Origin: Convolutriloba macropyga
Lineage: Eukaryota
Direction: 5' to 3'
DNA: 64,000 bases
NCBI RefSeq assembly: GCF_964194025.1
Contig: NC_134474.1
Span: 17,670,001 to 17,734,000, forward strand
Every line of letters begins with the position of its first letter. Position 1 is the stretch's first letter. The translations under genes and the position numbers were made by a program. The notes beneath the pieces are model-generated. The model saw nothing but the letters and a program-made list of their open reading frames with translations. It searched no databases and was not told where the DNA came from. This document shows positions 24,401 to 45,400 of the stretch, in pieces.

Positions 24401-27400
24401 CACTATATTTTTTAAGAACATTGGCATGATTATAAATTGAAAACAATTATCTTTAATTCTGTTTTTCGTTACGAAAAAAAATCAATTAAAACATCTAAAC
24501 GCTGAATTTTTAAGTTGAGTATTTCCTACAAAGTTCAGATAGTTTTGCGAGCGAATGTTCAGAGCTGCTGCATTATAATTTTGAGCTAATTCATTCTTTT
24601 AATTTTTTTTTTGAATTTCAGCAAATAGGTGTTGATGACTGTTTGACATGTTTTTCGAAGTTACCCGACAATTTTGTGTAGATTGAGTACATTCTCAGAG
24701 TTATATTCTTATATTGCCAAGGTTTTGCTTTTTATGGTGATCTTTCACATTTCTGATTGTGAATTTATCCCTTTTTTATACTTATAGGTGTAAGATATAA
24801 AAATGTAATTAAAATGGAGAACATAAAAAATCTCTACTTTTTTGTCTTGAAAAACGTATTTCTATTGGCAAGATTTGCTAAAATTTTCTAAAGTATTTGA
24901 ATTGTTAAAAAAGGTATATATTTTTTACTCTATTGAGACAAACATCGGAATATAAAAACAAAAATATTTTATAAAAACAAAATGTTTGTTAATGGAGAGG
25001 TTTTCTTACCTATAGACTTTGTTTGTTTTTATATGATATAGTTATGATTTATTTTGTTTCTAAAACCTTGTTAAGTTGCAGAGTTGTTAGACCAATATTA
25101 CGCTACAATTACATCCTGTTCAGAGTATAAACAGACAAAAAATAATCATTTTGCTCAGGTTGAGCTCAGAGTCTTAATCTGAATTTTTCCATGAAATGTC
25201 TTTTAGATGCGATGATCAGAACGGTAGCATAGTAAAAAAAAGACTAATGATTCAGTACTGAAATATTAAGAGATTCGGATTCGGGTATAACTGTGGTGCC
25301 GGGCATCAGAAATTGGTGGTGATAATATTGTCACATGTAACATTAGAACCTGAAATAGACATAGACACAGACTACTGTCATGCTATTAGACTAAAGGACA
25401 TTAATTACAATAAACATCAGTGGCGGTGTTCAAGGTTACAGGAGTTAAATGAGTAATTAAAAAGTTTTACGATCTCTTTTACCGAGAACTGACATTCATA
25501 ACAATAACTGATTTTTTTCAACTTTGTGTTACACGTTTAAAACATATTTAAACATTTACACATTTAACACATTTAATAATTAATATTACTATAATTAAAA
25601 ACATTTATTTATTATAAATATTATGTTTAGAAAAACTGTGGTCAAGTCAAGGTGTGCATCTGAACTCCTCCTCAGTTGTACAGTCTTCTTCTTACTCTTC
25701 TTCTTCTTCTTCTTCTGTCTATCGGAAAACTCCCTTTTATCGGTCAGATGAGACGACCTCCTCCACCACTGTCCTCACAAACATCACATGTTTATCAACT
25801 CATCTTACAGCTTTCTCTTTTATTATGGTACGAAGTCAATTCCATTCTTAATCGTCGCTCAATTAGCCGAATAAAAGTTAAAACGAAATGTTGCTGCCCT
25901 TGATGAACGGCAATAATATTTAGAATGTTTTCTGAGCCTTTTTTTAAACAAATTATTAGGGTTTATGTAGCCGGTATTGCATATGGGGTGGAAATGGCCA
26001 TTATAATTAATAGATAACTCCACAATAGCTTTAAATAAATATTAGTTACATGTGTTATATAGGACTATTGCACGGGGGGGGGGGGGGGAGGAGGAGGAGG
26101 AGGAGGGTTCGAGGGACAGCTTGCATTATTGCCGTGCCGCTTGTGAAATCTAAGCAACATTTCTGTCATTTTACTAGATCTGATAAACAACCGCGAGTTT
26201 TATTATCGCTGACTCTTTGAAAGTTATTAAATGCAACGAGAAAGCAACGAAATCATAGCAAGTCAAACTAAAATTTTTTTCAGTTGTGAATTTTGGACTG
26301 CTTCAGTAAAATGCTTCAGTTAACATTTCTGGTCATTTATTGATAGGTGTTTGTTTGTCTCTTTGAGAGTGTGTATTTTGTTTATTTGTTTGTTGCAGAG
26401 TGAGACGGGGCGTCTGTGGGACACGGAAGTGCCCTCTGTGTTGCCCTTTGTGGGTGTGGGATTTGCAATTGTGGGTTACACTCTCACAATCATCACTTAC
26501 TGCCTTTTCAGGTTAGTTACCCTCCTCACTCTAATCCACACCCCTTGTAATATGTCACCCAATGAGCGGGGTCAGCTGGGAAGCCAATAAGGATTAATAA
26601 CTTCCTCTTGCTAGCTCGGAGAGCATTTCAATTCGGAAACGGTGGAGGTCAATCAAGCCCATAGCCAAGCAAGCCGAATTTTGAAAAAAAAGAGAAACTA
26701 TAAAAGCAGAAAATTTTTGATATAGCGCTGTTATAGATTGTCCCTGGCGGTCTAGTGGTTTTGCTTCGCCCCGAAAAAAACGGGCCCGCGGTTTCCGGAT
26801 TACATCCCACAGAGAGTGAGAGTCGTAGCCATTTTTAACTCTGATGTGGTAGGTATTTTATTCGCTTGATCTTAATTACCACACTAGAGCTAAACCTATA
26901 TTATTGTAGCGACCTTAATTGCGTGCTAGAATAAGTCTCACAATATGCTCACAATGTTCTTTGCTAATTTCCAAATCTATGTGTTATTTGCTAGAAAATA
27001 AAATTGGTTAGATACAAAGGTTAATTAGTAAATAGATAAAAATGATAGAGCACAATTGGGGATTAATTCCTACTTGAAAATATGGTGGGGTATCTAATCT
27101 TAATCAAGAAATTGAATCCATCTTACTGCTGGATATGAATAATAATTTAACTCTATTTTTGTTAGAAAATTGGCAGACTTACAATTGCTGCAGATAGTCC
27201 CGCTTAGCGGAGAAAATAGTGGTTTCGCTCTTAGAGCAGAGAGAGGAAGAGAGAGAAGAGAATTTTTTGGTTAGATTTTTAGCGTCTTACTTTCGCGCTG
27301 GTTGAGTTTTGGTCTGATTTCCTTCAGCAGCAAAATCTAGTCTCGTGCGTGTTTATAATTGAGTCAACACGACTAAAAAATCACAAGACCTATGACTAGC

Positions 27401-30400
27401 TCCGAATCAATTCCTAGGTCATTCGTGGAGCCGACTACTACTCGTCTTTAGTCATATATTCGTTTCAGAATTGGTGCTGAAGAGCGGCCTGGATAGCTTC
27501 AGTATCCTTCACGTATTACGCGTATTAATAGCGGTGGTGAATCAGCCGGTATGGACCGCTGCATAGTGTATTAAATAATACACAGCAGTATTTGGCTATG
27601 AATAATGTATTCATTCACTCAACGCAATTCACGCAGCATAGCTCTCTCTTAATATTCCGTCAGTTTAGACTAAGTCTAAAGTGTTCACAAAGTCGACGGT
27701 TAAATAATTATACTCTCTGTAGTATCGGTAATTGCGGCGGCAATTATCCAATTAGCAATACTACAGCTCACCCCGGTTTAAAGAAGAGAAAAATTGTGCT
27801 CTATCGTACAAAGTTTACATTAAGAGTATTAAAGAAACGATAATAGTGTTTACAAAAAGTTGCAAAGTGAAAAGCAACATATTAAGGGAAATAATACTTT
27901 TAAAAGTTACGACTTTGCGATACTGATGAGGGTTACTAGGTATAGAATTTTAAACAAATTTGCAGTTTACATATTAGTTTACAAATAGAGACTGGATAGC
28001 AAATACACCAGTTATGAGACTAATAAGATTTAAGAACCGGTTGGTGATTAGGAGTAGAAATACTAGAATATATGCTCGTTGGAGAAGTTTACAAAAGTTA
28101 AGACTATTAAGATCAATGGACAGCAATGATACTGTGCGACAAAATTAGTAGCCTTTAAATGGAAAATTTCATGAGACACATAAACAAAGTGATAGTGAAA
28201 GAGTTGTTACAAGTACAGCAAAGACGAAAATGAGTCTTAGAATATTAATGTGAAAGGAAGTTTACAAAATCAGAAATCAATGTTAATTGTTCTTTATAAA
28301 TTTTAGCGCTTTCAATTCTTTTGCAAGGCTTTGATTGGCTTCAATGAGCTCATTTGACTTCCTGATTAGAGTTTTCAGCTGGGTATCTCTAATTTCTAAA
28401 GTTTTTGAACAAACGACCAGCTTTTTTCTCATTATCTCTTTCTCGTTGTTGGTTGTCTTTGCAGAGATTTGGAGAGCGCTCAGTTGGCTCTGAAGGTCTG
28501 CTAGAGCATTCTCTGACTCCCAGAGTTGTTTCCGGAATGTGGAGTTCTCAACCACTAGATCTGTGGTGGAAATTGTTTCGGCCATGTTTGTGTTTTCTGG
28601 GAAGGCTGTAAGGTTGGAAAAAGGGACGTGCATCCTACAGCCTAGCGTCTTGTGAGCCACTTCATATGACCTTTCGTTGGCATTTCGGGAGCGAAGTCTC
28701 CACAGGTTCATTGCCGGTACCAACGAAAAGTCAGGAATCACCGGTAGGGTGTCGGTGGGAACAGTGATCGTCTGGCCGGTAACTTTATTTTTGATCACTG
28801 TTTCCTCTGACAGACACCATTGGTTACAGTCCATTGTGAGGGAATAATCCAACGACTTAACGAATTTTGGATTGTTGTCTAACGGATGCATCTCTCTCAT
28901 CCGTTGGTGCTCCAGCCTCTCTTCCTTCAAAGGAAAATCTCTTCCCTTGGGCAATCCGTCGTCTATGGAACTGTGAATAGGCTGAAGAGGTGCTTGATGA
29001 GAGTTGCTTTTAACTGTGGTTTGTTGATGTTGATGGGGCTCATGCTGTTGTCGGTATTGTTGTTGATGTTGGTGTTGATGTTGTTGTTTATGTTGTTGTT
29101 TGTTGAGATGACCACGTTGACGCGGATGGATTGCTCTAGGCTTCTTTGCTAAAGGTGGAAGATCAGCCATCCAGTTGGTCAATGGGTCATACTGCTCCAC
29201 TGGCAATGTGGGGGTTGCGGTCTGGTGGGATCTTTTCGACATCTTGTCAAACATAAATATAAATACACTTACAAATAAAGATTAAAACGAAATCTAGTTG
29301 TGCTGAAAAGAAAACAATCGTACTTTTAAAGGTACCAACAAAATCATACTCTTAGAGTACAGAATTGCAATCACACATTATGTGCAGAATCAATTTGCGA
29401 AGCTCCCACCGGGGTGGAAAGAAAGAAAAGAAAAAATCGAAGGAATTGAAATTTTGAAAACAATCTCCGTTTTAAAAATCGGAATATCCTATTAACAAAA
29501 AATTTAATTGTTTAGAAGCTTTGAATCAGATTGTGTCAGATTTAACTGACTAAATCGGGTTTCGGACCTCGTGGCTCCCCTCCGTGCGACGACCCGCGCA
29601 GCTGGGTTTTTTGTGTTGCAGTATATAACTGCTAGTGGTGAAGGGTCGTTAGATGAGGAGAAGGATGAGGACTTCTAGGAGGAGGCCAACAGAGAGGGTG
29701 ACGATAAAGGAGAGAAGAAGAAGAATTGGGACGTAAATGGGGTGCATTTGCATTGTTTAACAGCTTTCCGACCAAACGTCGTGAGGGTTGATCTTCTTCA
29801 GACAAATGGGGCAATTATGTTTATCTTGGGCACAGGGTTTGCACACAAAATGTCCAAGGTCCTGGTGACATTTTATGTGCGGGTGAGTTGAGGAGGTGAC
29901 ACATTTCTTTAGTTGATTGCAGCAGAAGCATCGGTAGTAAAAACTAATGGATACGGTGTAAATATGGCGGAGGCAAAGGGGGCAATTTGGTTGGGAAGAA
30001 TGTTTGAAGAGGTTAGTTCTGCAATCAGTGCAAACTAGATGAGGGGGTTGGTCTCCGTCCGAAGGGTGCAGTTTTTTCCAGCATGATGTAATTCGTAAAC
30101 AAATGGGACATTCATCATGATACTCGACAACAGGGGGGCGTGATGAACTTTGGAGGGGAAAAACTATTCGAAAGGAAAAATAATTTCCCATTTTAAAAAT
30201 CTCGGGATGGATAGATAGTTTCGTTATTAAGGTTATTTGGGAGATTTGATTGACCTAATTTTAATACGAGCGACTTTTCTTTTTCAAAAAGAAATTCCAA
30301 TGGGGTGAGAGGGGAGTTAGGGTTTTCATTAAATTTTGTTGAGTGTCAATATTAACATAATAAATTTCTAAGGAAGGGGAGGTATAGTTGTCAGTCTCGG

Positions 30401-33400
30401 TAAAGGAACGTTTAATGTCAGTTATTCTGACTAAATGCTGGTTGAGGTGAAAAATCATAATTACAATAATTTATTGGATTCTGTTGAGATACTTCTAGCA
30501 CATTTAGACTCGTTATCGAGGAGGTAAAAGACATAATCCCAGTAAATTGAAGTGGGGTAGACTGAGAGGGTTGATGTTTTCTGGGTTTTCACGTTCTTCA
30601 AGTTTACTAAAATAAATGCTTGAAGGGAAGGTTCAGTTTCAAAGGTTTTCACGAAGCTGCAAATCTCAACTAGTTCTTGGTTCAAAAGGAAAAACATGAC
30701 TTAAAATAAAGGAATAGGATACTTAATTGTTAATTCTGCGTTAGAAAAGAAGGATAGGAATAGGGATATTTCGAGTATTTGGGGGTGACTAATTTTTAAG
30801 GTTAGATAGTGATTTAAAATGCTGTGGGGTTGTCGAATATAAATAATAAATGAGTTATGGGTTGTGGATAATCCAAGGATAATATATTTTATAATATTTA
30901 ATTTAAGGGTAAGGGATCTATTCTGTATATTAATCATTACCAGTTGGAGATGTCAATGGGAAGCTCGTCTAAATTTTGCTCTGAAAGCATTAAAAAAAGT
31001 TCCAATAAGGGGAAAAAGCTGGTATTTTTATTGAACCTTCGTCCCAAGAGTCTACAAAATCGAACAAAACTTCTAGAGTGGGAGTTACTTGATAGGGAAA
31101 ATGGATAGTAAAGGATCGATTAATTTGATAAGGTCTTACTAAACTGCCTTGGTAGTAAAAGTACATTCCAATACGTTATTCTCGTGCTGATGGAGCTTGA
31201 AGTGTTTGCAATGTACTGTAAATACGTTTGGTTCTCTAAAATGTTTAAGAAATAAAGCAAAATTAGTTAAAACGTATAAAATAGCAAATAAAATAATTAG
31301 TTCCCGAAGGGACTTTTGAAGATCGAGGTGCATCATTTTATAAAAGAAAGTGGATGTTGCTTCCTAAATCTAGTAGACCATATTCACAATCAAGTAAAAA
31401 TTCCTTAAGAGTATAAAATTTTTCGTGGTCTGAATAAATTAATATGTCTACTAAGTCTGAAAATTTGGGTGCGCTAACTTTTAAATGCACTAAGTTTTCA
31501 TAAGCGGGTGTAAAAGAGTAATATATATGTCCGTAAAATTCGTGAAACTTAATAAATAAACCTTTATGGTACTCGGATACAAAAAGATCATTAAAGTTTT
31601 GCATCTCAGATCATAATGCTGAAACAGTTAGGTTTAAACTAATAAGAGTTGGTGAAATGTGATTAATTAAGTATAAAAAGACAAATTGGATGACTGAATT
31701 ATGGGGGAGCAATTGCATTTACTTCTTGCTCAGTAGGAACTTTAGGATAAAGATGTGGTATTTCTTGAATAGGAGGTGATACTACTTCAGGTGCAGTGAG
31801 TGGTGACAATTCAATTTGACTGTTGTCGTGATAGATGTTATTATCTGGTGTGCGCTTGAGGTATCGACTTCTGTTTGGTTCGTTGTTTGTATTGTTATCA
31901 GAATTTTCATCATTTTTAGGAGTTTGATAAATTGATGTGACAATGGAAAGTAGAAACAAATTGTACGAGGCTCCTAGTAGTGTTTTCCAAAAACCAATAG
32001 TGTTTTTCGACAGTTTTTGTATCTCGAAAGCTCTTAAAATAAAAATTACGACATCGATCAAGAACTTGATCAACATGAAACATGCAAATAAAATTCCGGC
32101 TCTTTCTATGTAATAGCCAATTCTCCAAAAGTACTCTTAAAGTGATCAAGGAAAAATGATGGTGACAACATTGAATCTAAGTATAGTCGATTATTGAGAC
32201 CTGCGGCGCGATAGATATCGCGTTGACTACTGTCTACGTGTGCATTTTGAAGCACTGTTTGAGAAATCTTTTTCAAAACTGAATTAGAAGCTGATTTATG
32301 CAAAATTGTTCTCCAAAAATCTTTCAACTGGTTTACAGTGTAGATACCTGCACGACGAGAATCATAATCAGGGATTTTTTGAATATAACCAATTTGTTGT
32401 GGAGCAAAAACAGCGGGCGGTTTAAAAGGAACTGGCGCCGGCATCAACTGATACCAAGAATTATTATTATCTAAATCAAGTTGAAACAAATTTTTGAAAG
32501 TATCTGTACAGTCTATTTCATTTGCAAATGGAAATGTTTGGCGCGTAATAGGATTAACAAACATAGTTTTTCCGTCATAAAAGATCGGAATACGGTCGTA
32601 ACAGCGATCAAGTACTTTAAGCGGTGAAATTTTCTTTGGACACGGATATAGAAAACCTATAACACCTTCAATTTCTAAAAACATTGAACGATTTCCGGTT
32701 AACATGTATCCGGCCAATCTATTGTTTTCGTAAGACAATGCATTGATCATTTGGATTTGAGTGCGTCTGAGCTCGCACATATTTTGTAAAATAAGGAAGT
32801 CAGACTGTTCCAAATCACGATAAATCTTATACATCATGAAATTAATTTTCATACGCATATGAGCATCATAATCGATAGTGTCTTTTCCAACGTTTTCAAG
32901 AATTTTTTTATGATTTCCAAAATGTTGGCTACCAACTAGCTTGTTTTTAGGTGTCTCGTAAAAACCGTTCACCCTTATTTTGTTGTCGGTGCCGACTTGC
33001 ATTTTGTAATAATTAACACTATTTTTCGAAATTACGGTTTTTCCCGTATTCATATCAAATCCGCCTGTGAAGGAAACAAATAAATCATCAAAGTTTGTAA
33101 TAAACAAAGGAGTAGGCTTTCCACAAATATAAATTCTTTCATTATTTATCCTCAGTTTTATGTCTCGCGTGTGGTCTATTTTCATGTTGTTTTGCAAACG
33201 ATAAACATCATTTTGCATGTCGTGCGTACTTATGATGTAGTATTGTGGTGGATCTGGTTCGTTTGTGAACTTTATCATTTTTGCAACTTGAGTGAAAAGT
33301 TTTGTAACAATGCAATTTTCTGGCACATCCCATGAGTAAGCGAAGGGGTCTAGTGATGTTGTTTCACAACCTCCTTCCTTGAGTTCGCATGGAAGTTTTA

Positions 33401-36400
33401 ATCCTAATGGGGTAAAAACTGATTTTGTTTCCTGATCAACTTCGAGTTCAACTCTTTGCATTTGTGTTTCAAAGGAATAAAGTTTTACTTCTCCTGACGC
33501 AGAGCAATCTGTGTTATCTTCTAAGTGGTCGTCCTCATTCAGACCACCGTGTGTGTATTGGTGTTTTAAAACTTCATTTGAAATGTCTAGCTTATAAGTT
33601 CTATCGTACTCTGTTATTGCTATTTTTCCTGTTTTGTTTGCACGTCTGCATTCTTCTGGCGTTACTATGACGTCAGTTGTAAGATAAATTTGGTCATATG
33701 CTAAAGAAGAGTGCGATGAAAATCCACAGTGCCATCTTAAAGCTTGCGATTTTACTCGACACATCACTGCCTCTACTTTTGTTCTGTACGATCTTTGATA
33801 CAGTGTCACCGTTGCAGGTGCAACTTTAATATTTTCCGGTTTAATGTTGCATTGAGCTACTTGATTTAAAGCATACATTTTGCTTTCTTTCATTTTTGAA
33901 CAGTCATAATGAACAACTTTTAACGTAGGGGAGATGTCATCCAACTCATTTCTAACTGAGGGTCTACAAAAAGATACAACAGTAAAGACAAACAAAACAG
34001 TTAAATATTTATAAAGGAAGTTATTGTTTTTCATAATAACTTTATTTTATTAGTGATTGACTGAGTTTTTGGTTTTTTTAGTGTCAGAAAGCTAAGAATA
34101 AGGCTGGAAGAAGTAAGAGAAAAGGTCTCGGAAGTTAATTTTCCGATGATTTGAACCTTTAACGTAAATATATAAGGTAAGATTTAAGTAAATCCCGCTT
34201 GATAGCGAGTAGTAAGTTTTTTCAATCGTCCCGAAATTCGACGATCGATTCGAGATGAACGTTGATCATCCGAGGGAGTTGGGTTTGCTTCGGGTGATTG
34301 TACACGGGTTTGTGTTCTAACCGGGCTGACTCTAATGTCAGGTGGATCTGCAAAACGAATACGTGTTTCGGGATATGGGGTAGAACTTCTAGTTCTACTA
34401 CGACTACGGTTATCAGGTGTTTGTGTGTTATCTACAAACGTAGTTGAAAAACCTTCTTGAAATCCTGAATCAGGTTTTGTTATTGTGGTATTGTTATCTT
34501 CAAATATTTTTTCATGATTATTTTCATTTTGTATGTTATCCGAATTACTTGTAAAATTGTCTACTGGGAAAAATTCAGTTTCAGTATAGGGTTGTTGAAA
34601 GGAAAATTTATTCATTGGCTTATTAAGTTTTTCAACTTGTTTATTCATTAAATTTTTGTAGAATGGTTGGAAGTTTTCATTCCTTAAACCATAGTCAACA
34701 ACTAATTCTGAAATTGCGTTTTCGATTGGGAAGTACTCAATTAGATGGTTTCTATGGGCAACTTTTTTGACAGTTTTGTTTGAAACAAGTTCTATTTCGT
34801 AATTTACATTTGTCAATTTTTTGTTACTTCATACGGTCCTGTTCTTAGTTCATGTAACTTTTTGGATTTTCCGTCCTCGAATGAGTGGTTTTCCATTAAC
34901 ACTAGTTGTCCTACGTCTAAAGGCTTACCTAGTTTATGTTTGTTTCTGTTTTGATGTGCTTTGGAGTTAACTTCTAGGCTTCTGTTGTATGCAGTTTTGT
35001 AAATTTGTTTGAATTGATTTTCACGAGCAAGCAATGAACTACTTAGTTTTGGTTTTAGTAGTTTATCTATTTGATCGTTGTTGCTACTTTGTTCTGAATG
35101 CTTGTGGAGTGGTAAATCTTTGCAAAATTCTGAATTACAAGTTAAATCGGAAGACCTTAATAATCCTAATTTCAGAGAAAGGGGAATTTGGGGCTTTTGG
35201 CCAAAAACGATTTCGTAGGGTGTTAATCCTGTACTAGTGTTTGCTGTTGTGTTATGAGCAAACGCGAACTTTGGTGCTAAGTCACTCCAATTACGATTAG
35301 CTTGTTCAAAAAAGAATCGGAAATGTGTGCCAAGATGTTTGTTTTGGATCTCAACTTTTCCGTTGGTCCAGGGAGAATATGCTGTTCTAGGAGCATGCGT
35401 AATTCCAAGTTCATGAGTCCAACTTGTGAACTCCTCATTCATAAAGGCTGATCCTTTATCATACACAAGTTTTTGTGGGATGCCAAAAGTAAGAAAAAAT
35501 TTCTCAAGTGCTGATATTGTTTCGCTTGCTGATGTTGATGAAACTGGGTAGACTTGGATGTAACGAGAAAAGGAATCAATTACTACTAGGCAATGTTTGT
35601 TTCCGTTCGAAGGTGGATTTATTGGACCTTTGTGATCTATATGTACCGTGTGGAAAGGGAAGGGTACAGTTTCTGTCCATTTTTCAAGTGGTGCTTCATT
35701 TAAGTCTTTGCGTTTTTGTTTATTTTTTTGACAGTCTAAACAATTCGCTATTAAGTGAGAAACCCATTTATATAAACCTGGCCAATAGAAAAAGCGTTTT
35801 ATGCTTGACAATGTTTTATCTTTTCCAGAGTGTCCAGAAAGCGAATCTTGGTGAGCTAAATCAAAAATTTTTAAGAAGACGGATAATGGTGCGCATATTT
35901 TGATGTTTTGAATATTTGGATCTTCAGTTGGTTGTTTAATACATAAAATGTTTCCAATTAGGCAAAGATTTTCAAAATTATTCAAGTACGTTTTCATGGC
36001 TTTTGATTGTCGAAATTTTACATTTTTCTCATCTTTGTTTCCTGATTCAGAAAGTTGTCTTACAGTCTGAATGACTGGGTCTTTGAATTGTTCCTGGCTG
36101 ATTGCTGCTATGTTCAAGTCAATATCTTTAGCAAAACTAGATAATTTCTCGATTAGTTCTTTTCCATCTGAAATTTCGTTATTTTCACAAATTGGTTTTG
36201 CTAGTCGAACACTTGCTATTCTATCAAAGTTTGCTTTGCTTGCTTCAATCTCTTGCTCAAGACTCATGTCATCTATTTCTAAATCTGATAATTCAACAGA
36301 ATCTAACAGAGGATCGTCTTCTGTTGTAGAAAATTTTTCAAAGTGCTCCTTTTCCTTTTCCAAATTATCATCAAATTCTAAAGACAAATCAGAGTAGTAA

Positions 36401-39400
36401 TTTTCACTGTCGTCTTGTTCGCTTAGGATTGGCTCTTTGAGTGGGAATTTTCCGCGATAGTGATTTATTGCATTTCCTTTCAAGAAGGATTCTGATATGT
36501 CCGAAGTTGAACAAATTCGATCACTGGGTTTATAGTTTGTCTGAAAAAATTGTTCATTTTCAAAATTCAGTTTTTTAACTCCTTGAAAAGTTTGTTTTAG
36601 AATGGGGTAGCAATCATTTTTCTGTCCCTTTTCATTGTCATGCAACACGAAGTATTTTTCTTCGTTGCCTGACTCGTCGTAGAATTTAATGTCTTTCGGA
36701 ATTTTTTTGTGTTTCAGTTGATACTTGTCTAAGTCTTTTATCGAGACGTTTCTACTTAGAATGTCTGGAAAGGCTAGGTTTTTGCCTTCTGTCCAAATTA
36801 TTTTTAAGTTTTGGAATTGTGAAATGACAAGTTGATAGCGGAAAAATCGATGAGATAATTTTCCTCTACGTCCCCAAAGATACAGTAGGGGCTTGTGGTC
36901 TGTGTAGAGATAAACTGGATGTGGAGAACCTATTATGTAATGCTCATACGTTTGTAGAGCAGAAATTACGCCACAAAGTTCTCTAGCTGTTGTACTCATT
37001 TTTTGCTCATCTTTTGTGTAAACTCGAGAATTAAATGAAACTATCCGTTTTCCGGTAGGAAATTCTTGAACTAAAATTGAACCAACACCAATTGATGATG
37101 CATCTACATGAACATGGAAGGGGTATCTGGTGTCAGGAATTGCTAAGACTGTATCTTCACTTATACGATCCTTAATTTCTCTGAACAACTTCTCGTGTTC
37201 ATCTGTCCATTGAAAAGTGGTTTCAGTTTTTATAAGATCGTAAAATGGCTTACTGTCTACATGCAGATTCTTTATGTACATGCTGTAAAATCCTAAACAA
37301 CCTAGGACTCGCATTACATCTCGTTTATTCTCAGGTGTCTTTAAGGCTTTGAGATCTTCAACCCTTTTCTTTACTGGTTGAATTCCGTCTTTTCCTACTA
37401 CATGTCCTAAGAATTGTACTTTACGCAAAAAGAATTTTGTTTTCTCAGGTTGAGCTTTCAGTCCTGCTTTGCGTAGCAAAAGATGGTACTTTTTTATGAT
37501 TGCATACATCTCTTCAGCTGTCTGAGCTTGCATGATTGTGTCATCAATATAAGTCACGGCTTGTCTACATTTTATTAAGGGTGCAAAATGGATTGTCATT
37601 ATCCTACTGAAAAAGTTTGGTAGTCCGCAAAGTCCGTAAAAACCACGTTGAAACGTGTATTGTTTTGAACCTATTACGAAACTCGTCAATTGTTGTGTTT
37701 CCTCCGTTAGAGGGACTTGATTATATGCAGAACATAAATCACTTGTAGTGAAGTAGTTTCCGTTTAGTCTAGTCAGTAAAGAACCTATTGGCTCTAGAGG
37801 CCATGAATACTTACTTAGGTCTGTTATTGAGTTTAGATACCTAGCGTCTATTACTAGTTTCACTATGTTTCCCTTTGGAAGGATGATAACGGGATTAATA
37901 AATGACAATCCCATTTCGGTGTCGTCTCCCATTTCTCGAATTATTCCTGCTTTACAGAGCTGATCTAGCAAAATTTCAAGTTTTTCCTGATGGTGCAATG
38001 GCACTCGTGATGGTCTCTGCTTAGTCAAGGTTGAATTTGGTAGAAGTTTTACGTGAAATTTTTGCTTTATTTTGCCAACGTCATACTTGTGCTGAGAGTA
38101 GACGTCCTTGTCTCTGGCAAGAAGTTTCATGAGATCTAGTAATTGTGCATCATTAATGTCAGATTGACTGAAGTCAAATTTTTTGAGAAACTCACGGTCT
38201 GATTTACTAAATATTTCCAGTTTTTCTGGTGGTATTTGTTGTGGTCGAATTTCACCTTCTATTGTTGCTTTTGGTTTTAAGTCTTTTAGATCTTGACTAA
38301 AATCTGTTTCTAATTCATTGTGGTCTGCAAATTCTTTTTCTTGAACCTTTTTCTGAGCTTTTTTCAGCTTTTGTCTAATATCTGTTTTGTCTAATTTCGG
38401 ATTTTCTAAAGTCTGAATTGGGTTTTCGACTTTTTCAGTCACATGAAAGATGTGATTGAAATCTGTTTCAGTTTCTGTTAAGACATCTAAGAACGAGACG
38501 TTATCAATCAGTGTGTACTTTTGTGTTTTTTTGCAAATTTCTTCCAAAGTGTATCCTATTGAACCTTTATCTATTGTTACTTTACGATCACCAGGGTTAT
38601 TTAGCATTATTGGCAACTCTTTTTCTTTTCTTACACAATAGACGTTGTATGTGTAAATACTTTTGCCCTGGAGTCGATTGTCAATTATAAATGATGTTCC
38701 TTGTTTGAAAAATTGGTTTGATGGTGTAATTGTTAGTACTCTGCTAGATTTCGGTGCTAGTTCGAAAGGTCTGTTAAGTACAACTTTTTCAAATTTACTT
38801 ACAAAAGGATAACTTTTTGTTTGATATTTTGAGAGTGTGATTGAGACGTTTGGATAAATTTTTAAGTTCATTTTTGGAGTTGTGAACTCGATTGATTTTG
38901 TTGCAAAATTCAAAAAGTCCATTCCTAGGATGTTTAATTCGCAACCGTTTTTCTCTGAAACCCATGTTTTGAGATCTGTGTAATATTTGCCTTCAATGTC
39001 AAATGAGATTGGGACATGAATGTAGCCTAAGAATTTTAATCGTTCACCGTTGACTGCAATTGTTTTCTGTTTTGACTCAATTAGTTTAACATCAATCAGT
39101 GACTTAAGTTCTTGTAGGAAATCAAAGTTTATTAGGGAACACGTTGCTCCTGTGTCAACTAGAAACTGCGATTCGAAACCGTTATGTTTATTACTGTCTC
39201 CGACGGCGTGAATGTACAAGTTAATAAAAATGTTTGTCTTTTTATTTTTGTACGGAGACTCGTCTAGTTTAAATTAATTTCATCTTGTTGATTGTCCACA
39301 AAGAATCCATTAACTTTATTTTCTCTGAATTGAACTCTGTTTGAGTTACGGTCTCTACTGTTATCTCTAGAATTCTGATTAGAACTGTTACTTCTTCTAT

Positions 39401-42400
39401 AGTCCTGTCTTGGACTGCTTGACTCACGATACCTTGTTCGGGAATCGTTTCGATCATATTGTCGTTCCCTGGAATAGTTCCTATTATCCTGGGGTCTACG
39501 ATCGTTGGATCTGCTATTATAGCGTCGATCTCGATTCTCAAAGCTTTGTGAGCGATTTCTGAAGTTATTGTTCTCAGATCTAGGATGAGGAGAGTATTGT
39601 CTGCGGTTATCTTGGTTGTAGTAACTGTTATGTGGTCTAGTGTCTTGTCTGTATCGGTTCTGATTTCTATCATAACTATCTTCTCTTGGACGACGTTCTC
39701 TATAGCTTTGATAGTTATCTCTAAACTTATCTCTTTGCTGTGGTTGTTGTCTGTTTTGTTCTTTAAAGTCTCTGTTTGCATAGCAATATGCTATTGTGTG
39801 ACCCGACTTTCTGCAAAATTTACAAAATCGTGTGTAATTTTGTTTATTTCTAGGCTCGTTTGGGTTGTAGGCTGCGCTAATTCTGTTGTTTTTCATTAAA
39901 CTTGCTAATTCTTGGAGCTGGTCTTTTATACCATCTATCTCCATTTTATTGTCTATGCTGCTAGATGCTGTACCTGTGAAATCACTACTTACTGCAAAAC
40001 TTAAGTCTTTAGAGCTAACTTGATTTCTAAGTTGTTCCCATGTTGCGTTGGGTGTTTCTATCAAATATTGATGCGCTTTTTGTTTAAGTGCTGGAGGAGT
40101 TAGTCCTCTTACAAAAAATTCCATACACTTAGTTTGCCTTTGAGCATCTGTGAATGGGTCGGGCCATCCCTTTTCCACTGCTTTTGTTAGTCTGTGTACG
40201 TAACTTTTGATTAATTCATCTGGTTGTCTACGAATGTTTTCTACCTCAATTCGTTTTCTGTACTTGTCTTTCTCGTCTGTGAATCTATTTAGGAAACCTG
40301 TCCTAACATCATCCCATGGTTCCGCTGCGGGCAAGGAATCGAACCATTGGGCTGCTGGTCCTCTTAAGACTGAGCCAAATAATGCTTTTCTACGTGCGTC
40401 ATATGCATTTTGTGCATCTCCTGGTCCTGGTCTAACTCCTAATGAAAACTCTATTTTTCTCTCTATTAGACTTAGAAAATCTGCTACGTCCTCACTTGGG
40501 TCTAAGCCTGTAAATTTTTCAAGAGAAATGTCTGGGTATGCTACGATGTTAGCCATTTTTGTTTTAAGGTTTTTGTTGAATTATTACTAAGTTTTTATAT
40601 GAAAAAGATACTATAAACGAAAGAAGCAATATAAAAGTCTAATCAAAAGAATTTGAAGCTATGCAAAGGTCAAACAATTTTTTATAGAATTTAGAAAATA
40701 TTCAGACAATTTGCTTAAACAAATGGTCCTATCTCAAAAACACTATTTGGGGTACGAAGTGCGTCTAAAATTTGGTTAAACTTTGGGTTGTTTTCCGCAT
40801 GTGTTATGTAACAAGCTAGTCCTGGAATGTTATCAAAATTAATGAAAATGTACATATATTGCTTTTTCTTATCTAATTTATAACTAGTAACTTTGCCTGT
40901 ATTATGACCAAGTTTGATTATAATATTCAAGAAGTTAGCGTCAATATTCATCGAATTCAACTTTTGCTCTAAAAAAGGTGTAATTTTTGACAGTATAAGT
41001 TACAAAATTAGGTACTAGAGTGAACTAGAGTTCAATATAACTATTGGGCGTGTGCAAAGCTTTCAAAGTTTTGTAAAAATCAGGATTAGAACTTGCATAT
41101 GTTATAAAACTGTGTAGGCGCGGATCGTTAACAAACCTGTAATAAATAATCAGAGATTGTTTATCGTTATTTAAGGTGTACCTTTTAACTTTTGCAACTT
41201 TATCGTCGTACAAAATTGTTACATTTAGATGCTTTGTACTAATATCCATAAGCTTGAATATAAGACAATAAGAATAAAAATGAGTTTTTGTTTTATTTTT
41301 CACTTCGTTTTATACAAAAATTTTTGAGATTAAATAATTATGGGCATTTGTTCATTCGTTGATAGCAACCATCTTCGGTTAGTCGAAATTCTATCCAGAA
41401 AAATTTTCCTGACTGACAAAATTTTGGTTTTTGATTGCTTTCAGAGTAGGCGGTTGTTAGTATTGGCCTATATACTCTGACTCGATAGGAAATGATTTGA
41501 TTATCGCTATCAGATTTTCTTATTAGAACACAATAAACTATTTCTTTTTGGATTATTTCTTTAACAAAGTCAGGTAGTGTGGGTGATAACATGCAAACTT
41601 TTTCAAACTTATAGAGTTTATTATCTGGCAAGGGTACTAATTTCAGATTTTGGCTGCTTTCGCTCATTTATTGGAAGCGTGTGGTAGAGTGTACATACAT
41701 TGTAAATCGATGATTGAGCCACGTTTATTAAGTCTATTAAACAAATAATCTAGAGAGGTGTTTTCAGTTTTGAAAATGGTTACTTGACCAACAGTTTTTG
41801 TTATTTTGATACGGTAGACTATTGTCACGTATGATTGTTCAACGTCAGTGACGTATTTGAGCACTCGACAGTCTGCTGAGTTATCCTTAATACTTATTTG
41901 TTTGTCTCCTATTAGGTATTCCATAAACTTTTTTGCAAAAACTGGAAATTTAAATTTGTTGAAGTGAATTTGTAGCAGAATTATACGTAACCCAACAAGT
42001 GCAATCGAATATATGGCTCAGAAAAACGAAGGAGAAACTTAAATATTACAAAATACCAGTAAAGGGAACGTTTACTGAAAAAGGTTGCACGAAAAGATCG
42101 TGTTATTTCCTTTAAGTTTGCCGTTTTGGTGGTTAGTTTTGGACAAAACGCTATATTTCTATTAGTATATGAACTTAAAACAGGCGTTAATAGTCTTCAA
42201 TAGCTATTTTCTTGTTTCTGTGTTCGAATATTTAGTCATACTTCAGGATTATTGGCGAATTTCAGGAAATTATTCGGAATTTTGAGGCCAATTTTGAGAT
42301 TTGTGCCGCTAATTTGTATCCAAAATGAGATATTTTTCACTTGTTGTGGTTCAATTTGGGTAATTTTTTACAAGTTCTGGGCAATTTTTGGATTACCTGA

Positions 42401-45400
42401 GTGAATTTTGGGTCAATTTTGGGCAAAAAATGACAATTTTGGGTCAATTTTGATCAATTACCAGATCAATTTAGACAAAATATTGTAAGATCTTGGCAAA
42501 TTTTGACAATTCTTTACCAAAAGCGGGTGTTTTCTTAATGAAACAGGGTGAAATCGGGAAAATTTTGGCTAAACTTGACAATTTTTTGACAATTTTGGGC
42601 TAATATGTCAATAATTTGGGTCAAATCTAATAGTTTCGGGTTAAAATTATTTCAATTTTGTGTCTAAAAGCAAAAATTGTGGTCAAAATTTACTACATAT
42701 AGTTAGTTATTGGTTAATTTCAGGCAAATTCTGGATTAAAACCGATAAATTTGCATGAATTTCAGATAAAAACTGAAATATTTTGGTCAAAAATGGGCAA
42801 ATTTAGGACTAAAGGCTCTAAAATTGGGCACTTTTTAGGTAAAAATTGAAAAAATTTGGTCTAAATAAGTGAATTTTAGGAATATATGAGCTTAATTTGG
42901 CAATTTTAGAGAACAATCTGGGCTTATTTTGGTGAAATTTAGTGGATTTTGGCACCAAAACTCAATTATTTAGTCAAAACTGAGGTGAATTTAGGCAAAA
43001 AACACACAATTTCTACACCAAACAGGGCTAAATTCTTCAAAAATCTAATAAAATTTAAAAGTTTTCACTTTATTCCGGACAATTCTTGTGAAAAATTCTG
43101 TAAAATTGGCTGATTTTAGGAGGAATTCTCATAAATTCCTGTTAAATTAGGCAGAAAATAGGCAAAATCGGGCTAAAAATCTCATAAAACCAACTTTGCT
43201 TAACTCAAAACTATGAAATTTTGGAAATTGGGGGGCTAAATCGGGGCGTTATAGTGACTGCTGGGGTGTTTGGTTAACAATACAACGTTATTTGTAGCTA
43301 TCAGAGTGATTTATTAACTTCTAGATACATTAAAAGGTACACTATGCATGTATAATGAAGCAAAACAACGTTAAACTAGGCTTATTTGCATGTGGGTCAA
43401 TTTGTTTTTGCAATACTATGGGTTTGGAGGATGATAAGTTCGACAATTTAAATGATAAATCAAAAGTTAAGATGTATAGGACACGCTAAGGTTAAGTTAC
43501 GGACAATAAATGCGAGCTAGATTAATGAATATTGATGTATGATTTCGTATATAGGACTAGGGGGGATAGTACAGTTCGTTATGCTAACAGTATTAAAGAT
43601 TTGGTTAAGTTGAACACAATTATTTAGTCTAAAAGTAACATTAATGTGACCGGTCTTGTCGAATTTTGTGCGGGGGGGAGTACAAATACGTCTTTTTATG
43701 ATACACAATTATGTACTCACGTGTGCGCTTAAAAAACCAACCTACAGTGTCAAAATTTGGGTCTGAGAAGCAAAGAACCGGTGCTCAAAGTTATTAAATC
43801 AGTGGACTGTTCTTTTGTGGGGAGAACCCGTCTCTTTTAGTCGGTCGTAATTGAGACGTTCAGAATCTTAGAACATCTCACACAGGTACTGGGATAGCGC
43901 GGTATGTGGCCCTACCATAGAACCTGTGTGACCTCTGGGTTTTTGGTTTGGAAAACTAGCCACAAAAAGTCCACCAGGCTCCTAAATGTGTGAGCAACCG
44001 ACGTTCTTTATTCCTCGTCGCACCAGTTTTTAACTCTGATGTGGTAGGTATTTTATTCGCTTGATCTTAATTACCACACTAGAGCTAAACCTATATTATT
44101 GTAGCGACCTTAATTGCGTGCTAGAATAAGTCTCACAATATGCTCACAATGTTCTTTGCTAATTTCCAAATCTATGTGTTATTTGCTAGAAAATAAAATT
44201 GGTTAGATACAAAGGTTAATTAGTAAATAGATAAAAATGATAGAGCACAATTGGGGATTAATTCCTACTTGAAAATATGGTGGGGTATCTAATCTTAATC
44301 AAGAAATTGAATCCATCTTACTGCTGGATATGAATAATAATTTAACTCTATTTTTGTTAGAAAATTGGCAGACTTACAATTGCTGCAGATAGTCCCGCTT
44401 AGCGGAGAAAATAGTGGTTTCGCTCTTAGAGCAGAGAGAGGAAGAGAGAGAAGAGAATTTTTTGGTTAGATTTTTAGCGTCTTACTTTCGCGCTGGTTGA
44501 GTTTTGTTCTGATTTCCTTCAGCAGCAAAATCTAGTCTCGTGCGTGTTTATAATTGAGTCAACACGACTAAAAAATCACAAGACCTATGACTAGCTCCGA
44601 ATCAATTCCTAGGTTATTCGTGGAGCCGACTACTACTCGTCTTTAGTCATATATTCGTTTCAGAATTGGTGCTGAAGAGCGGCCTGGATAGCTTCAGTAT
44701 CCTTCACGTATTACGCGTATTAATAGCGGTGGTGAATCAGCCGGTATGGACCGCTGCATAGTGTATTAAATAATACACAGCAGTGTTTGGCTATGAATAA
44801 TGTATTCATTCACTCAACGCAATTCACGCAGCATAGCTCTCTCTTAATATTCCGTCAGTTTAGACTAAGTCTAAAGTGTTCACAAAGTCGACGGTTAAAT
44901 AATTATACTCTCTGTAGTATCGGTAATTGCGGCGGCAATTATCCAATTAGCAATACTACACCATGAGCAGCGGTCCGCTGGTGCTCGCAACTACTCGATG
45001 CCTGGAAAAATCATACTTTTGATAACATCCTGTTTTTGAGACCTTCGTTACTTAAATCAAAATTTAGGAAATCTCTAAATTACATACATTTTAGGAATTT
45101 TCTATTACTGGACAGGTAGGGCTTATATTCTGCACTCGCTATTTTATTTCCAATTTGACGTGCTCTTTTTATCCCAAACTATTATTGCTATTTACTCTAT
45201 TGTATCCAATAAATAGGCTTTTAGCGAGAAAATGAAAATTTTTGAATTTTTTTCCTTGTCTGTCAAACCCAACTATCTGTGTTTTGGTCAATATTGCAGC
45301 ACTTTTATCGCTAAGCACTCTATTGAGGAGCTTCGTATGTACGCAGTTATTAGTTTGCGTGCTAAAATTTTCAGACACAAACCCATTGTTTTTTCAATTG

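Follow-up and report, generated by a model that had tools for sequence, protein, structure and literature searches.

The small ORFs described here lie on the minus strand of an animal genome, in an 18.1-kb LTR retroelement of the Ty3/gypsy type (Metaviridae), within the window, i.e. the whole stretch of 64,000 nucleotides analysed. The element is young, multi-copy, env-carrying and virus-like. It occurs in at least 40 copies, which form three subfamilies (98-100%, ~91% and ~85% identity); 40 matches were scored out of 130 first-look candidates, and 32 of these 40 were taken into the copy analysis. The LTRs are direct repeats of 944 nucleotides with 99.4% identity (945 columns, 4 mismatches, 2 gaps). 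The true end of the 5' LTR is probably near 44031, followed by the PBS-like TGGTGCGAC, and a probable 4-bp target duplication, ATGG, flanks the element; this motif is present on both flanks provided that the LTR ends in ...GTTAAAA, an exact boundary that we infer. According to profile searches the gene order is gag, pol, env, accompanied by about ten small ORFs, a RING gene and a 323-aa gene. In transcriptional order, the features outside the array of ORF E to RING are:

44017..44960, minus strand: 5' LTR (alignable repeat, from LTR alignment)
41925..44016, minus strand: leader of 2.1 kb, ATG-depleted
41664..41924, minus strand: ORF A, 86 aa, open in 27/30 copies, dN/dS 0.16
41338..41667, minus strand: ORF B, 109 aa, open in 24/30 copies, own-frame dN/dS 0.31
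41025..41249, minus strand: ORF C, 74 aa, open in 27/30 copies, dN/dS 0.26
40715..40951, minus strand: ORF D, 78 aa, open in 28/30 copies, dN/dS 0.34
39264..40556, minus strand: gag (PF03732, 1.2e-07), dN/dS 0.25
34184..39273, minus strand: pol, with protease, RT, RNase H and integrase (Pfam profiles)
31699..34034, minus strand: env, Monjiviricetes-type fusion glycoprotein (PF24664 Monjiviricetes_fusion, 1.1e-39, 136 bits)
28283..29254, minus strand: ORF323, Q/H-rich N-terminus, no known family
26822..27765, minus strand: 3' LTR (from LTR alignment)

The element carries about 14 genes in total, with two arrays of small accessory proteins, one of them located 5' of gag. The leader contains 11 ATGs (29.8 +/- 5.3 expected), and no conserved ORF of at least 40 aa was found in its 2.1 kb. 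ORFs A and B share the four nucleotides ATGA (41667-41664) between stop and start, an overlap already recorded in the first-pass annotation and confirmed by reading the sequence, and ORFs C and D are paralogues (E = 1e-15). The pol profiles follow each other in the order PF00078, PF17917/17919, PF17921 and PF00665; the protease match (PF13975, 1.1e-05) lies just under its cut-off, and an Integrase_p58_C match (4.3e-04) is also sub-threshold. In the window, a 1-nt indel near 34816 separates the last ~210 codons of pol ('154-aa ORF'), and a frameshift near 32120 causes the TM and tail of env to be read as a separate 125-aa ORF; in other copies env is a single ORF with a continuous TM tail. The C-terminal half of ORF323 looks coiled-coil-like by eye.

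The E-to-RING array

Downstream of env, the element possesses a tight run of ORFs, listed here with their in-frame dN/dS over all A-versus-B subfamily pairs:

31338..31604, minus strand: ORF E, 88 aa, open in 23/32 copies, dN/dS 0.10
31139..31336, minus strand: ORF F, 65 aa, hydrophobic stretch at residues ~12-30, dN/dS 0.26
30937..31166, minus strand: ORF G, 76 aa in 17/32 copies, dN/dS 0.09
30701..30937, minus strand: ORF H, 78 aa, open in 26/32 copies, dN/dS 0.08
30461..30697, minus strand: ORF I, 78 aa, open in 27/32 copies, dN/dS 0.20
30193..30458, minus strand: ORF J, 88 aa in 25/32 copies, dN/dS 0.17, AlphaFold2 model
29757..30191, minus strand: RING-finger-like ORF, 144 aa, 15/32 copies, dN/dS 0.11

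The spacings given in the first-pass annotation are correct: a 1-nt gap between E and F (E stop 31340-31338, F ATG 31336, TAAAATG as read from the sequence), a 28-nt overlap of F and G (F end 31139, G start 31166), a 3-nt gap between H and I (H stop 30703-30701, I ATG 30697) and a 2-nt gap between I and J (I stop 30463-30461, J ATG 30458). The TAATG proposed for G-H 'after repair' exists in 17/32 copies, where the stop of the 76-aa G overlaps the ATG of H at 30937. In the window and eight other copies, a T run near 30991 differs in length by 1 nt, and G stops after 58 aa; the window G (31166-30990) is connected by TAATG to a 17-codon ORF (30990-30937), which is in turn connected to H by a second TAATG. 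The window J is likewise shortened: a 1-nt indel near 30280 leaves it with 65 aa (30458-30261). The 88-aa J of 25/32 copies stops 1 nt before the RING ATG at 30191, with the same junction sequence (TAAAATG) as E-F, and the run therefore comprises seven ORFs with RING added; the tight packing noted earlier stands, and its count of six does not.

Junction spacings in the element fall into two classes, seven of -28 to +3 nt and six of 73-502 nt. The ATG start of each array ORF is kept in 30-32 of 32 copies, and the terminal stop in 27-32 of 32 for E-J and in 26/32 for RING. Between subfamilies the stop/start adjacency is kept with compensating changes (UAAUG to UGAUG, TAA to TGA or TAG); the ~85% subfamily has altered stop codons and spacers of 1-3 nt with the adjacency retained, and even a copy whose J protein is ~76% identical retains the 1-nt gap between J and RING. 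Neighbouring array ORFs are in different frames. Given the conserved ATGs, the own-frame purifying selection seen in every ORF and the two-class spacing, the packing of the array exceeds chance.

Selection and encoded proteins

E-J and RING are real protein-coding genes under purifying selection, as presumed earlier for the small ORFs of this animal retroelement, and the selection acts in their own frame only. Off-frame dN/dS in the same A-versus-B pairs is mostly 0.7-3.2 (range 0.52-3.23). Pooled over E-J, pN/pS in five single pairs is 0.12-0.22 (binomial P from 1e-20 to 1e-29), with ~1 in the other frames.

ORF F is inactivated in one sub-lineage by a shared stop at codon 8, present in 9-10 of 18 subfamily-B copies. 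Within this F-stopped sub-lineage pN/pS is 1.13 for F, 0.51 for G, 0.27 for H, 0.15 for I, 0.19 for J and 0.14 for RING. The constraint that H, I, J and RING retain there indirectly suggests that termination at F's own stop is not required, which would fit scanning restart or separate mRNAs and would not fit strict coupling.

G, I and J are paralogues from an undescribed protein family that comprises 35 or more sequence clusters; the product of F is small and hydrophobic. The RING ORF begins with MGNxxS, by which its N-terminus looks myristoylated, and contains two Cys-rich clusters. Its Cys pattern is RING-like by eye, with RING models scoring under the curated cut-off (zf-C3HC4_3 17.9 bits and Prok-RING_4 19.5 bits, both vs 27). 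A Pfam scan of 17 ORFs (E <= 0.01) returned no family for ORF323, A-D or E-J.

Expression of the array

A candidate entry point precedes E:

31606..31626, minus strand: TGTTTCAG, acceptor-like, AG at 31620-31619, invariant in the 18 of 32 copies displayed

It is followed by a mini-uORF, ATG ATC TGA, that ends 1 nt before the ATG of E and has its ATG in 17/18 of the copies displayed. The RNA of the array is G-poor (228 G in 1850 nt). Folding in 80-nt windows gives a mean z of +0.23, and no window within reach of the junctions has z < -2 in single-sequence prediction. UAAUG is present at the G-H junction only, and F contains no ATG between its second codon and the ATG of G.

Motif 1 of TURBS, with UGGGA as its core, is complementary to 18S rRNA and lies 40-90 nt ahead of the junction. 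A search for such TURBS-like complementarity, recommended in the first-pass annotation, was negative: UGGGA occurs within 100 nt upstream of 1/7 junctions (-83 from J), and matches to 18S of at least 8 nt upstream of the seven junctions are at chance level (25, vs 19.7 +/- 4.2 after shuffling) and converge on no common 18S site. The host 18S has TCCCA at position 268 only.

Our preferred reading, held tentatively, is that the E-to-RING genes may be co-transcribed on one 3'-coterminal RNA, the downstream ones being reached by termination and restart. A subgenomic RNA would enter the array at the TGTTTCAG acceptor-like site, 15 nt before E, and E lies behind the mini-uORF AUG-AUC-UGA that stops 1 nt before its AUG. 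Ribosomes would translate E, restart at F and move onward ORF by ORF, helped by a G-poor RNA that lacks stable predicted folds, and would use no calicivirus-type 18S-binding element. Six serial restarts of calicivirus-like efficiency would leave the last ORFs almost unexpressed, so a high-efficiency CaMV-like form or several spliced RNAs would be needed: restart would require a CaMV-like trans-acting helper, or would be mixed with at least one extra spliced entry point. The same logic may apply to A-B, and to access to gag behind ORFs A-D. Against restart, neither TURBS (18S comparison) nor a TAV homologue (Pfam scan of 17 ORFs) was found. In animals, ribosomes seldom restart after an ORF of 58-88 codons. 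That an element protein, ORF323 or RING, drives serial reinitiation of at least seven cistrons on one RNA independently of cis elements is doubtful.

Splicing in the style of complex retroviruses ranks nearly as likely as restart and may quite possibly account for the array. A leader donor would be joined to a separate acceptor for each ORF, located either within it or ahead of it, giving nested 3'-coterminal mRNAs translated from the first AUG, and the packing would reflect genome economy and a legacy of tandem duplication. Splicing is the usual route in animal retroviruses, their accessory genes included. Acceptor-like motifs (Y-tract and AG) precede A, C, D, gag, env, E and ORF323, and at each tight-junction ORF a YAG lies 3-45 nt ahead of the start and is not separated from it by an ATG; however, of 30 strong acceptor-like motifs in 16.25 kb, 5 fall within 100 nt of one of 15 starts where 2.8 are expected, which does not amount to an enrichment, and the AG adjoining I's ATG is lost in subfamily B. 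The constraint on downstream ORFs after truncation of F agrees with separate mRNAs. As G, I and J arose by duplication, they could have inherited their spacing, but the equal tightness of E-F, F-G and J-RING, which join unrelated proteins, is left unexplained, as is the two-class spacing. None of the 15 DNA joints listed has the GT..AG ends of a spliced retrocopy.

It is decidedly unlikely that the ORFs are started independently of one another, whether by cap-independent ribosome entry within a long, unstructured and A/U-rich RNA or through the use of internal promoters. The low G content and lack of structure of the array RNA would suit internal entry, and a tunicate env-bearing Ty3/gypsy element reportedly has an internal promoter for env, which counts in favour; yet neither a promoter nor any known type of IRES would fit into spacers of 0-3 nt, and no conserved non-coding element was seen in the copy comparisons. 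Very improbable is also the resolution of a polycistronic precursor by spliced-leader trans-splicing of the host, as in nematode or tunicate operons. The packing is operon-like, and the host 18S has termini that are unusual for a eukaryote at both ends, pointing to a lineage that evolves rapidly; with gaps of 0-3 nt, however, trans-splicing would have to use an acceptor within the preceding ORF, whose mRNA would be cut off ahead of its stop codon. Fusion of the ORFs by frameshifting or read-through, to which in-frame J-RING fusions (P0018, P0031, L074) and two-unit proteins (P0035, P0045) in relatives point, is scarcely to be expected with an own ATG in 30-32 of 32 copies, own stops in most and differing frames of neighbours, and the equally improbable reading of the ORFs as non-functional relics is ruled out by purifying selection.

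Comparison with known systems

Caulimoviridae resemble the element in being reverse-transcribing and in possessing consecutive ORFs with 1-nt spacers or short overlaps behind a long leader (PMC5902531). The CaMV ORFs I-III meet at TAATATG and TAAAATG junctions, and III-V overlap by 19 and 38 nt; long spacers occur only where another signal sits (they contain a promoter), and no cis element is needed, according to the same review (PMC5902531), in which no TAV-like activator is known outside Caulimoviridae. The two-class spacing of the element matches that of CaMV. CaMV, which translates a polycistronic pregenomic RNA through TAV-dependent reinitiation, differs from the element in being a plant pararetrovirus without LTRs or integrase, and no TAV/P6 homologue was found in the element (Pfam, E <= 0.01). 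An unrelated element protein with a TAV-like role is possible. If an element protein did drive restart, plant pararetroviruses would no longer be the only known carriers of a TAV-like system, and the element would offer a natural polycistronic cassette for animal cells. Six restarts in a row, if true, would constitute the longest reinitiation relay known in an animal and would imply that some new factor or RNA property preserves the competence of ribosomes after termination, which would be of use in multi-gene expression.

Stops and starts that share or adjoin nucleotides (UAAUG, AUGA) are also found in calicivirus VP1/VP2 and influenza B M1/BM2, as described in PMC10275272. Each of these systems couples just two cistrons and depends on an 18S-complementary signal upstream, whereas in the element UGGGA is present at 1/7 junctions and complementarity to 18S is at chance level. 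The non-LTR retrotransposon SART1, likewise an animal retroelement with a UAAUG stop-start overlap, reportedly couples its ORF1 and ORF2 in this way (cited in PMC10275272) and requires a downstream RNA structure; it differs in its two long ORFs and in this structure 3' of the stop, whereas none stable is predicted at the element junctions. Complex retroviruses (HIV, HTLV, foamy viruses) have small accessory genes downstream of pol/env, dense and overlapping as in the element, expressed from alternatively spliced mRNAs. We know of no tandem paralogue arrays among them, and of none with accessory ORFs upstream of gag.

Metazoan env-carrying Ty3/gypsy elements (errantivirus-like) and chuvirus-type glycoprotein captures share with the element the order gag-pol-env and a class III-like glycoprotein of negative-strand-virus type (PMC13524379, PMC7642597). 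In a term search of PMC13524379, which showed no mention of arrays of accessory or small ORFs, 'accessory' and 'small ORF' have 0 hits each and 'additional ORF' has 2 (general discussion, reference title). The element differs in its small-ORF arrays, RING gene and 323-aa gene. Even if expressed by splicing, it is an unusually complex member of Metaviridae, with ~14 genes, two accessory arrays, an undescribed protein family and a RING-like protein. Thanks to its many young copies, it can serve as a tractable model of what accessory genes do in invertebrate endogenous retroviruses.

Anatomy of the element and its surroundings

The array of small ORFs is enclosed by an LTR retroelement of 18.1 kb on the minus strand, the two LTRs of which align over 945 columns with 4 mismatches and 2 gaps. 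The LTR starts with TGTAG and the PBS-like motif TGGTGCGAC follows directly after the 5' LTR. The exact ends of the element are those we infer, and the ATGG present on either side probably represents a 4-bp target duplication. Once the indels are corrected, the genes run in the order LTR, 2.1-kb leader, A, B, C, D, gag, pol, env, E, F, G, H, I, J, RING, ORF323 and LTR, with the pol domains arranged in Ty3/gypsy order. The features are:

26822-27765 and 44017-44960, minus strand: LTRs, 944-nt direct repeats, 99.4% identical
41925-44016, minus strand: leader (2.1 kb), from the 5' LTR to ORF A
40715-41924, minus strand: A-D, four conserved small ORFs 5' of gag
Minus strand: gag, Pfam PF03732 (1.2e-07)
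Minus strand: protease, open frame overlapping the gag end, PF13975 (1.1e-05, slightly below the cut-off)
Minus strand: pol, Pfam RVT_1 (2.3e-15), RT_RNaseH_2 (2.3e-25), Integrase_H2C2 (5.9e-16) and rve (3e-15)
Minus strand: env, 642-aa ORF, PF24664 Monjiviricetes_fusion (1.1e-39)
31139-31336, minus strand: F, one of the small ORFs E-J downstream of env
29757-30191, minus strand: RING-like ORF, 144 aa
28283-29254, minus strand: ORF323, 323 aa, before the 3' LTR

Though its LTRs are nearly identical, the window's copy differs from most other genomic copies by four frame-shifting 1-nt indels:

~34816: last ~210 pol codons split off as a "154-aa ORF"
~32120: transmembrane part and tail of env split off as a "125-aa ORF"
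~30991, within a T run: G truncated
~30280: J truncated

We infer the pol identity of the "154-aa ORF", since its match to Integrase_p58_C (4.3e-04) lies below the cut-off. The leader contains 11 ATG, where its dinucleotide composition predicts 29.8 +/- 5.3; such depletion would fit scanning by ribosomes on their way to ORF A. With A-D upstream, gag is no longer the first ORF of the full-length RNA, an unusual arrangement in a retroelement.

Outside the element, at a distance of 1.2 kb, an open frame of a secretin-family 7TM receptor (46112-46663, plus strand; 7tm_2, 4.5e-07) is probably a host exon. A pair of 82-nt direct repeats with 80% identity (20639-20720 and 21166-21247, 527 nt apart) also lies outside it, and no tRNA gene was found in the window. 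The host 18S rRNA gene (L033:1501-3324, 1824 nt, 1473 bits to RF01960) is present in at least 13 near-identical copies on small contigs; its first and last ~30 nt differ from what we take to be the usual eukaryotic termini, which suggests a fast-evolving host lineage. The receptor exon and the eukaryotic 18S, taken together, put the host among the animals. The arthropod cuticle domain PF00379 had no match, a weak negative, as this search had no hits anywhere.

Conservation of the ORFs and of their spacing

Searching the host genome (1.18 Gb) for the DNA of the E-J stretch yielded 130 first-look candidates. Among them, 40 matches were scored: 16 with 98-100% identity, 22 with 90-92% and 2 with 85-86%. 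The analysis comprised 32 of these 40 copies, namely all but four of the group at or above 98%, all but four of the ~91% group and both of the third group. Each ORF keeps its ATG start in 30-32 of the 32 copies. Intact reading frames are found for E in 23, F in 18, G in 17 (plus 9 in a short form), H in 26, I in 27-28, J in 25 and RING in 15 copies, and all seven ORFs of the array are intact together in four.

Nei-Gojobori dN/dS, calculated in the annotated frame for every pair between the 99% and 91% groups, is 0.10 for E, 0.26 for F, 0.09 for G, 0.08 for H, 0.20 for I, 0.17 for J, 0.11 for RING and 0.19 for the env tail, against off-frame values of mostly 0.7-3.2 (range 0.52-3.23); comparison with the 85% group gives a picture that agrees. 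As the all-pairs test is non-independent, it was repeated with natural copies compared one pair at a time (five pairs), in which the pooled pN/pS of E-J is 0.12-0.22 (binomial P 1e-20 to 1e-29 against neutrality). Upstream of gag, A, B, C and D are open in 27, 24, 27 and 28 of 30 copies, with dN/dS of 0.16, 0.31, 0.26 and 0.34, respectively (gag 0.25). All these small ORFs must therefore have been translated and of use to the element.

The close packing described in the first-pass annotation was recovered at every junction: E-F with a gap of 1 nt (TAAAATG), F-G with a 28-nt overlap, H-I with 3 nt, I-J with 2 nt and A-B with ATGA. The TAATG at G-H, which had been obtained only by repair of the frame, occurs naturally in 17 of the 32 copies, where G has 76 aa and its stop overlaps the ATG of H. 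The short form of G (9 of 32 copies, including the window's) has an early stop in a TAATG that opens an ORF of 17 codons, itself ending in TAATG with H. J has 88 aa in 25 of the 32 copies and stops 1 base before the ATG of the RING-like ORF, which extends the tight run to seven ORFs. Junction spacing in the element thus falls into two classes, seven at -28 to +3 nt and six at 73-502 nt:

Tight junctions: A-B, E-F, F-G, G-H, H-I, I-J and J-RING
Wide junctions: B-C (88 nt), C-D (73 nt), D-gag (158 nt), pol-env (149 nt), env-E (94 nt) and RING-ORF323 (502 nt)

In the ~85% subfamily, G-H is UGAUG, H-I 2 nt and I-J 1 nt. Stop codons vary, TGA or TAG replacing TAA in some copies, and an AG beside the ATG of I is absent in the ~91% subfamily. 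The J-RING gap is still 1 nt in an older copy with a J protein of ~76% identity. Gene order is unchanged in the older, decayed copies L071-L076, with one J-RING gap of 1 nt. Three of these loci, L071 (G000:C8:50166500-50176400), L075 and L076, contain several decayed J/RING/ORF323 segments in tandem within 6-10 kb, perhaps older copies that became rearranged or nested. J and RING are fused in frame in the relatives P0018, P0031 and L074 (4309-4824), and two G/I/J-type units are fused in frame in P0035 and P0045, so that adjacent units are sometimes read as a single protein; fusion and fission of neighbouring cistrons seem to recur.

Expression of the array

The best explanation of the array, held tentatively, is a shared subgenomic RNA entered before E, with restart along the array that would be independent of a TURBS (an 18S-complementary restart motif). 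This RNA would join the array at an acceptor-like site before E, and ribosomes would reach the downstream ORFs by restarting. The candidate site, TGTTTCAG, lies just 5' of E and is invariant in the 18 copies displayed; it is followed by a mini-uORF, ATG ATC TGA, which ends 1 base before the ATG of E and the ATG of which is kept in 17 of the 18. All widely spaced ORFs are preceded by acceptor-like motifs. Strong motifs of this kind before ORF starts number 5 (2.8 expected), which is no significant enrichment and does not discriminate.

HIV-style alternative splicing, with acceptors within upstream ORFs, is almost as likely. Splicing is the norm in animal retroviruses, a usable YAG lies upstream of every ORF, and six serial restarts would, without splicing, need very high efficiency. 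Four sequencing runs contain the stretch, all as DNA-like unitigs that add up to roughly the genome size, and none of the 15 joints listed from them has GT..AG ends on the sense strand. A mixture, in which a few spliced entry points each serve two or three cistrons, is plausible as well.

A sub-lineage with a truncated F bears on these readings. Of the 18 copies in the ~91% group, 9-10 (loci L015-L029) share a stop at codon 8 of F. Within this sub-lineage F is neutral (pN/pS 1.13), while E (0.20), G (0.51), H (0.27), I (0.15), J (0.19) and RING (0.14) remain constrained, so expression of the downstream ORFs needs no termination at the stop of F itself. Strict coupling to stop position does not fit these copies, whereas scanning restart through the ATG-free remnant and separate mRNAs both do. 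As this sub-lineage kept spreading, F is dispensable or supplied in trans.

A check for TURBS-like motifs upstream of each junction, suggested in the first-pass annotation, came out negative. UGGGA occurs within 100 nt upstream at only one of seven junctions, where it encodes Trp-Asp of I, and position 268 is the only place in the host 18S rRNA (1824 nt) where the complement of this motif occurs. Complementarity to the 18S rRNA is at chance level (25 perfect matches of at least 8 nt, 19.7 +/- 4.2 in shuffled sequence), with no common site. RNA folding across the array in 80-nt windows gave a mean z of +0.23, and no window near a junction fell below z = -2. The sense strand of the array is G-poor (228 G in 1850 nt) and shows no depletion of ATG (21, with 21.8 expected); F has no ATG from its second codon to the ATG of G, and H has no internal ATG. 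Synonymous sites near the ORF ends may be constrained: divergence at third positions is lower over the final 30 nt (0.083 and 0.115, against ~0.14 and 0.23; n = 54), although first and second positions rise over that stretch and sites of the F/G overlap are included.

In form, the packing most closely matches that of the cauliflower mosaic virus (CaMV) pregenomic RNA. According to a review (PMC5902531), CaMV ORFs I-III are joined by TAATATG and TAAAATG, ORFs III-V are linked by overlaps of 19 and 38 nt, long spacers carry other signals, and reinitiation requires a viral transactivator and no cis element; the same review knows of no such activator outside Caulimoviridae. Restart at UAAUG or AUGA has precedents in animals, namely calicivirus, influenza B and the SART1 retrotransposon (PMC10275272); these need RNA elements, none of which was found at the present junctions. 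Judged by titles and the starts of abstracts, an animal LTR element with tandem arrays of small accessory ORFs, or with proposed restart, is described in none of the papers listed by the literature searches. The main text of a survey of env-carrying Ty3/gypsy elements (PMC13524379) contains neither "accessory" nor "small ORF"; "additional ORF" appears twice, once in general discussion and once in a reference title. The element is thus complex and retrovirus-like, and its genes are packed in a CaMV-like manner.

The small proteins

G, I and J are paralogues (G-J 1e-9, I-J 4e-7). A profile search of 1.84 billion representatives gave 35 clusters (50% identity) at E <= 1e-3, 11 of them at E <= 1e-10. 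The relatives are mostly 65-95 aa long, with an N-terminus M-x-F...L-V and a conserved S-P-x-W-x-F-F, and none of the 17 family members scanned matches Pfam, nor do E-J or A-D. An AlphaFold2 model of J (pLDDT > 90 for residues 1-60) has four beta strands and then a helix (54-71), which we call a predicted small SH3/KOW-like barrel plus helix. Foldseek against the PDB gave no match to it at E <= 1e-3, the best being eIF5A/EF-P domain I and COMM domains (TM ~0.4), and a wide VIA-align search reached at best Z 5.4 (EF-P domain I), under the usual noise level.

C and D are likewise paralogues (1e-15), and A (0.004) and E (0.02-0.04) are weakly similar to D in pairwise comparison within a ten-sequence database. 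Profile comparison does not connect the G/I/J family to the A/C/D/E group (hhalign probability ~0.1%). The AlphaFold2 model of E is poor (pLDDT 42), and an ESM Atlas search with E gave no lead. F contains, as read from its sequence, a hydrophobic segment of the kind that crosses a membrane once. A PDB sequence search with the RING protein and ORF323 returned nothing below E = 0.3. The RING-like ORF has two Cys-rich clusters, with Pfam matches below the cut-off, and begins with MGNCFS, which resembles an N-myristoylation signal. By analogy only, it is reminiscent of Z, the small RING matrix protein of arenaviruses, which has such a signal.
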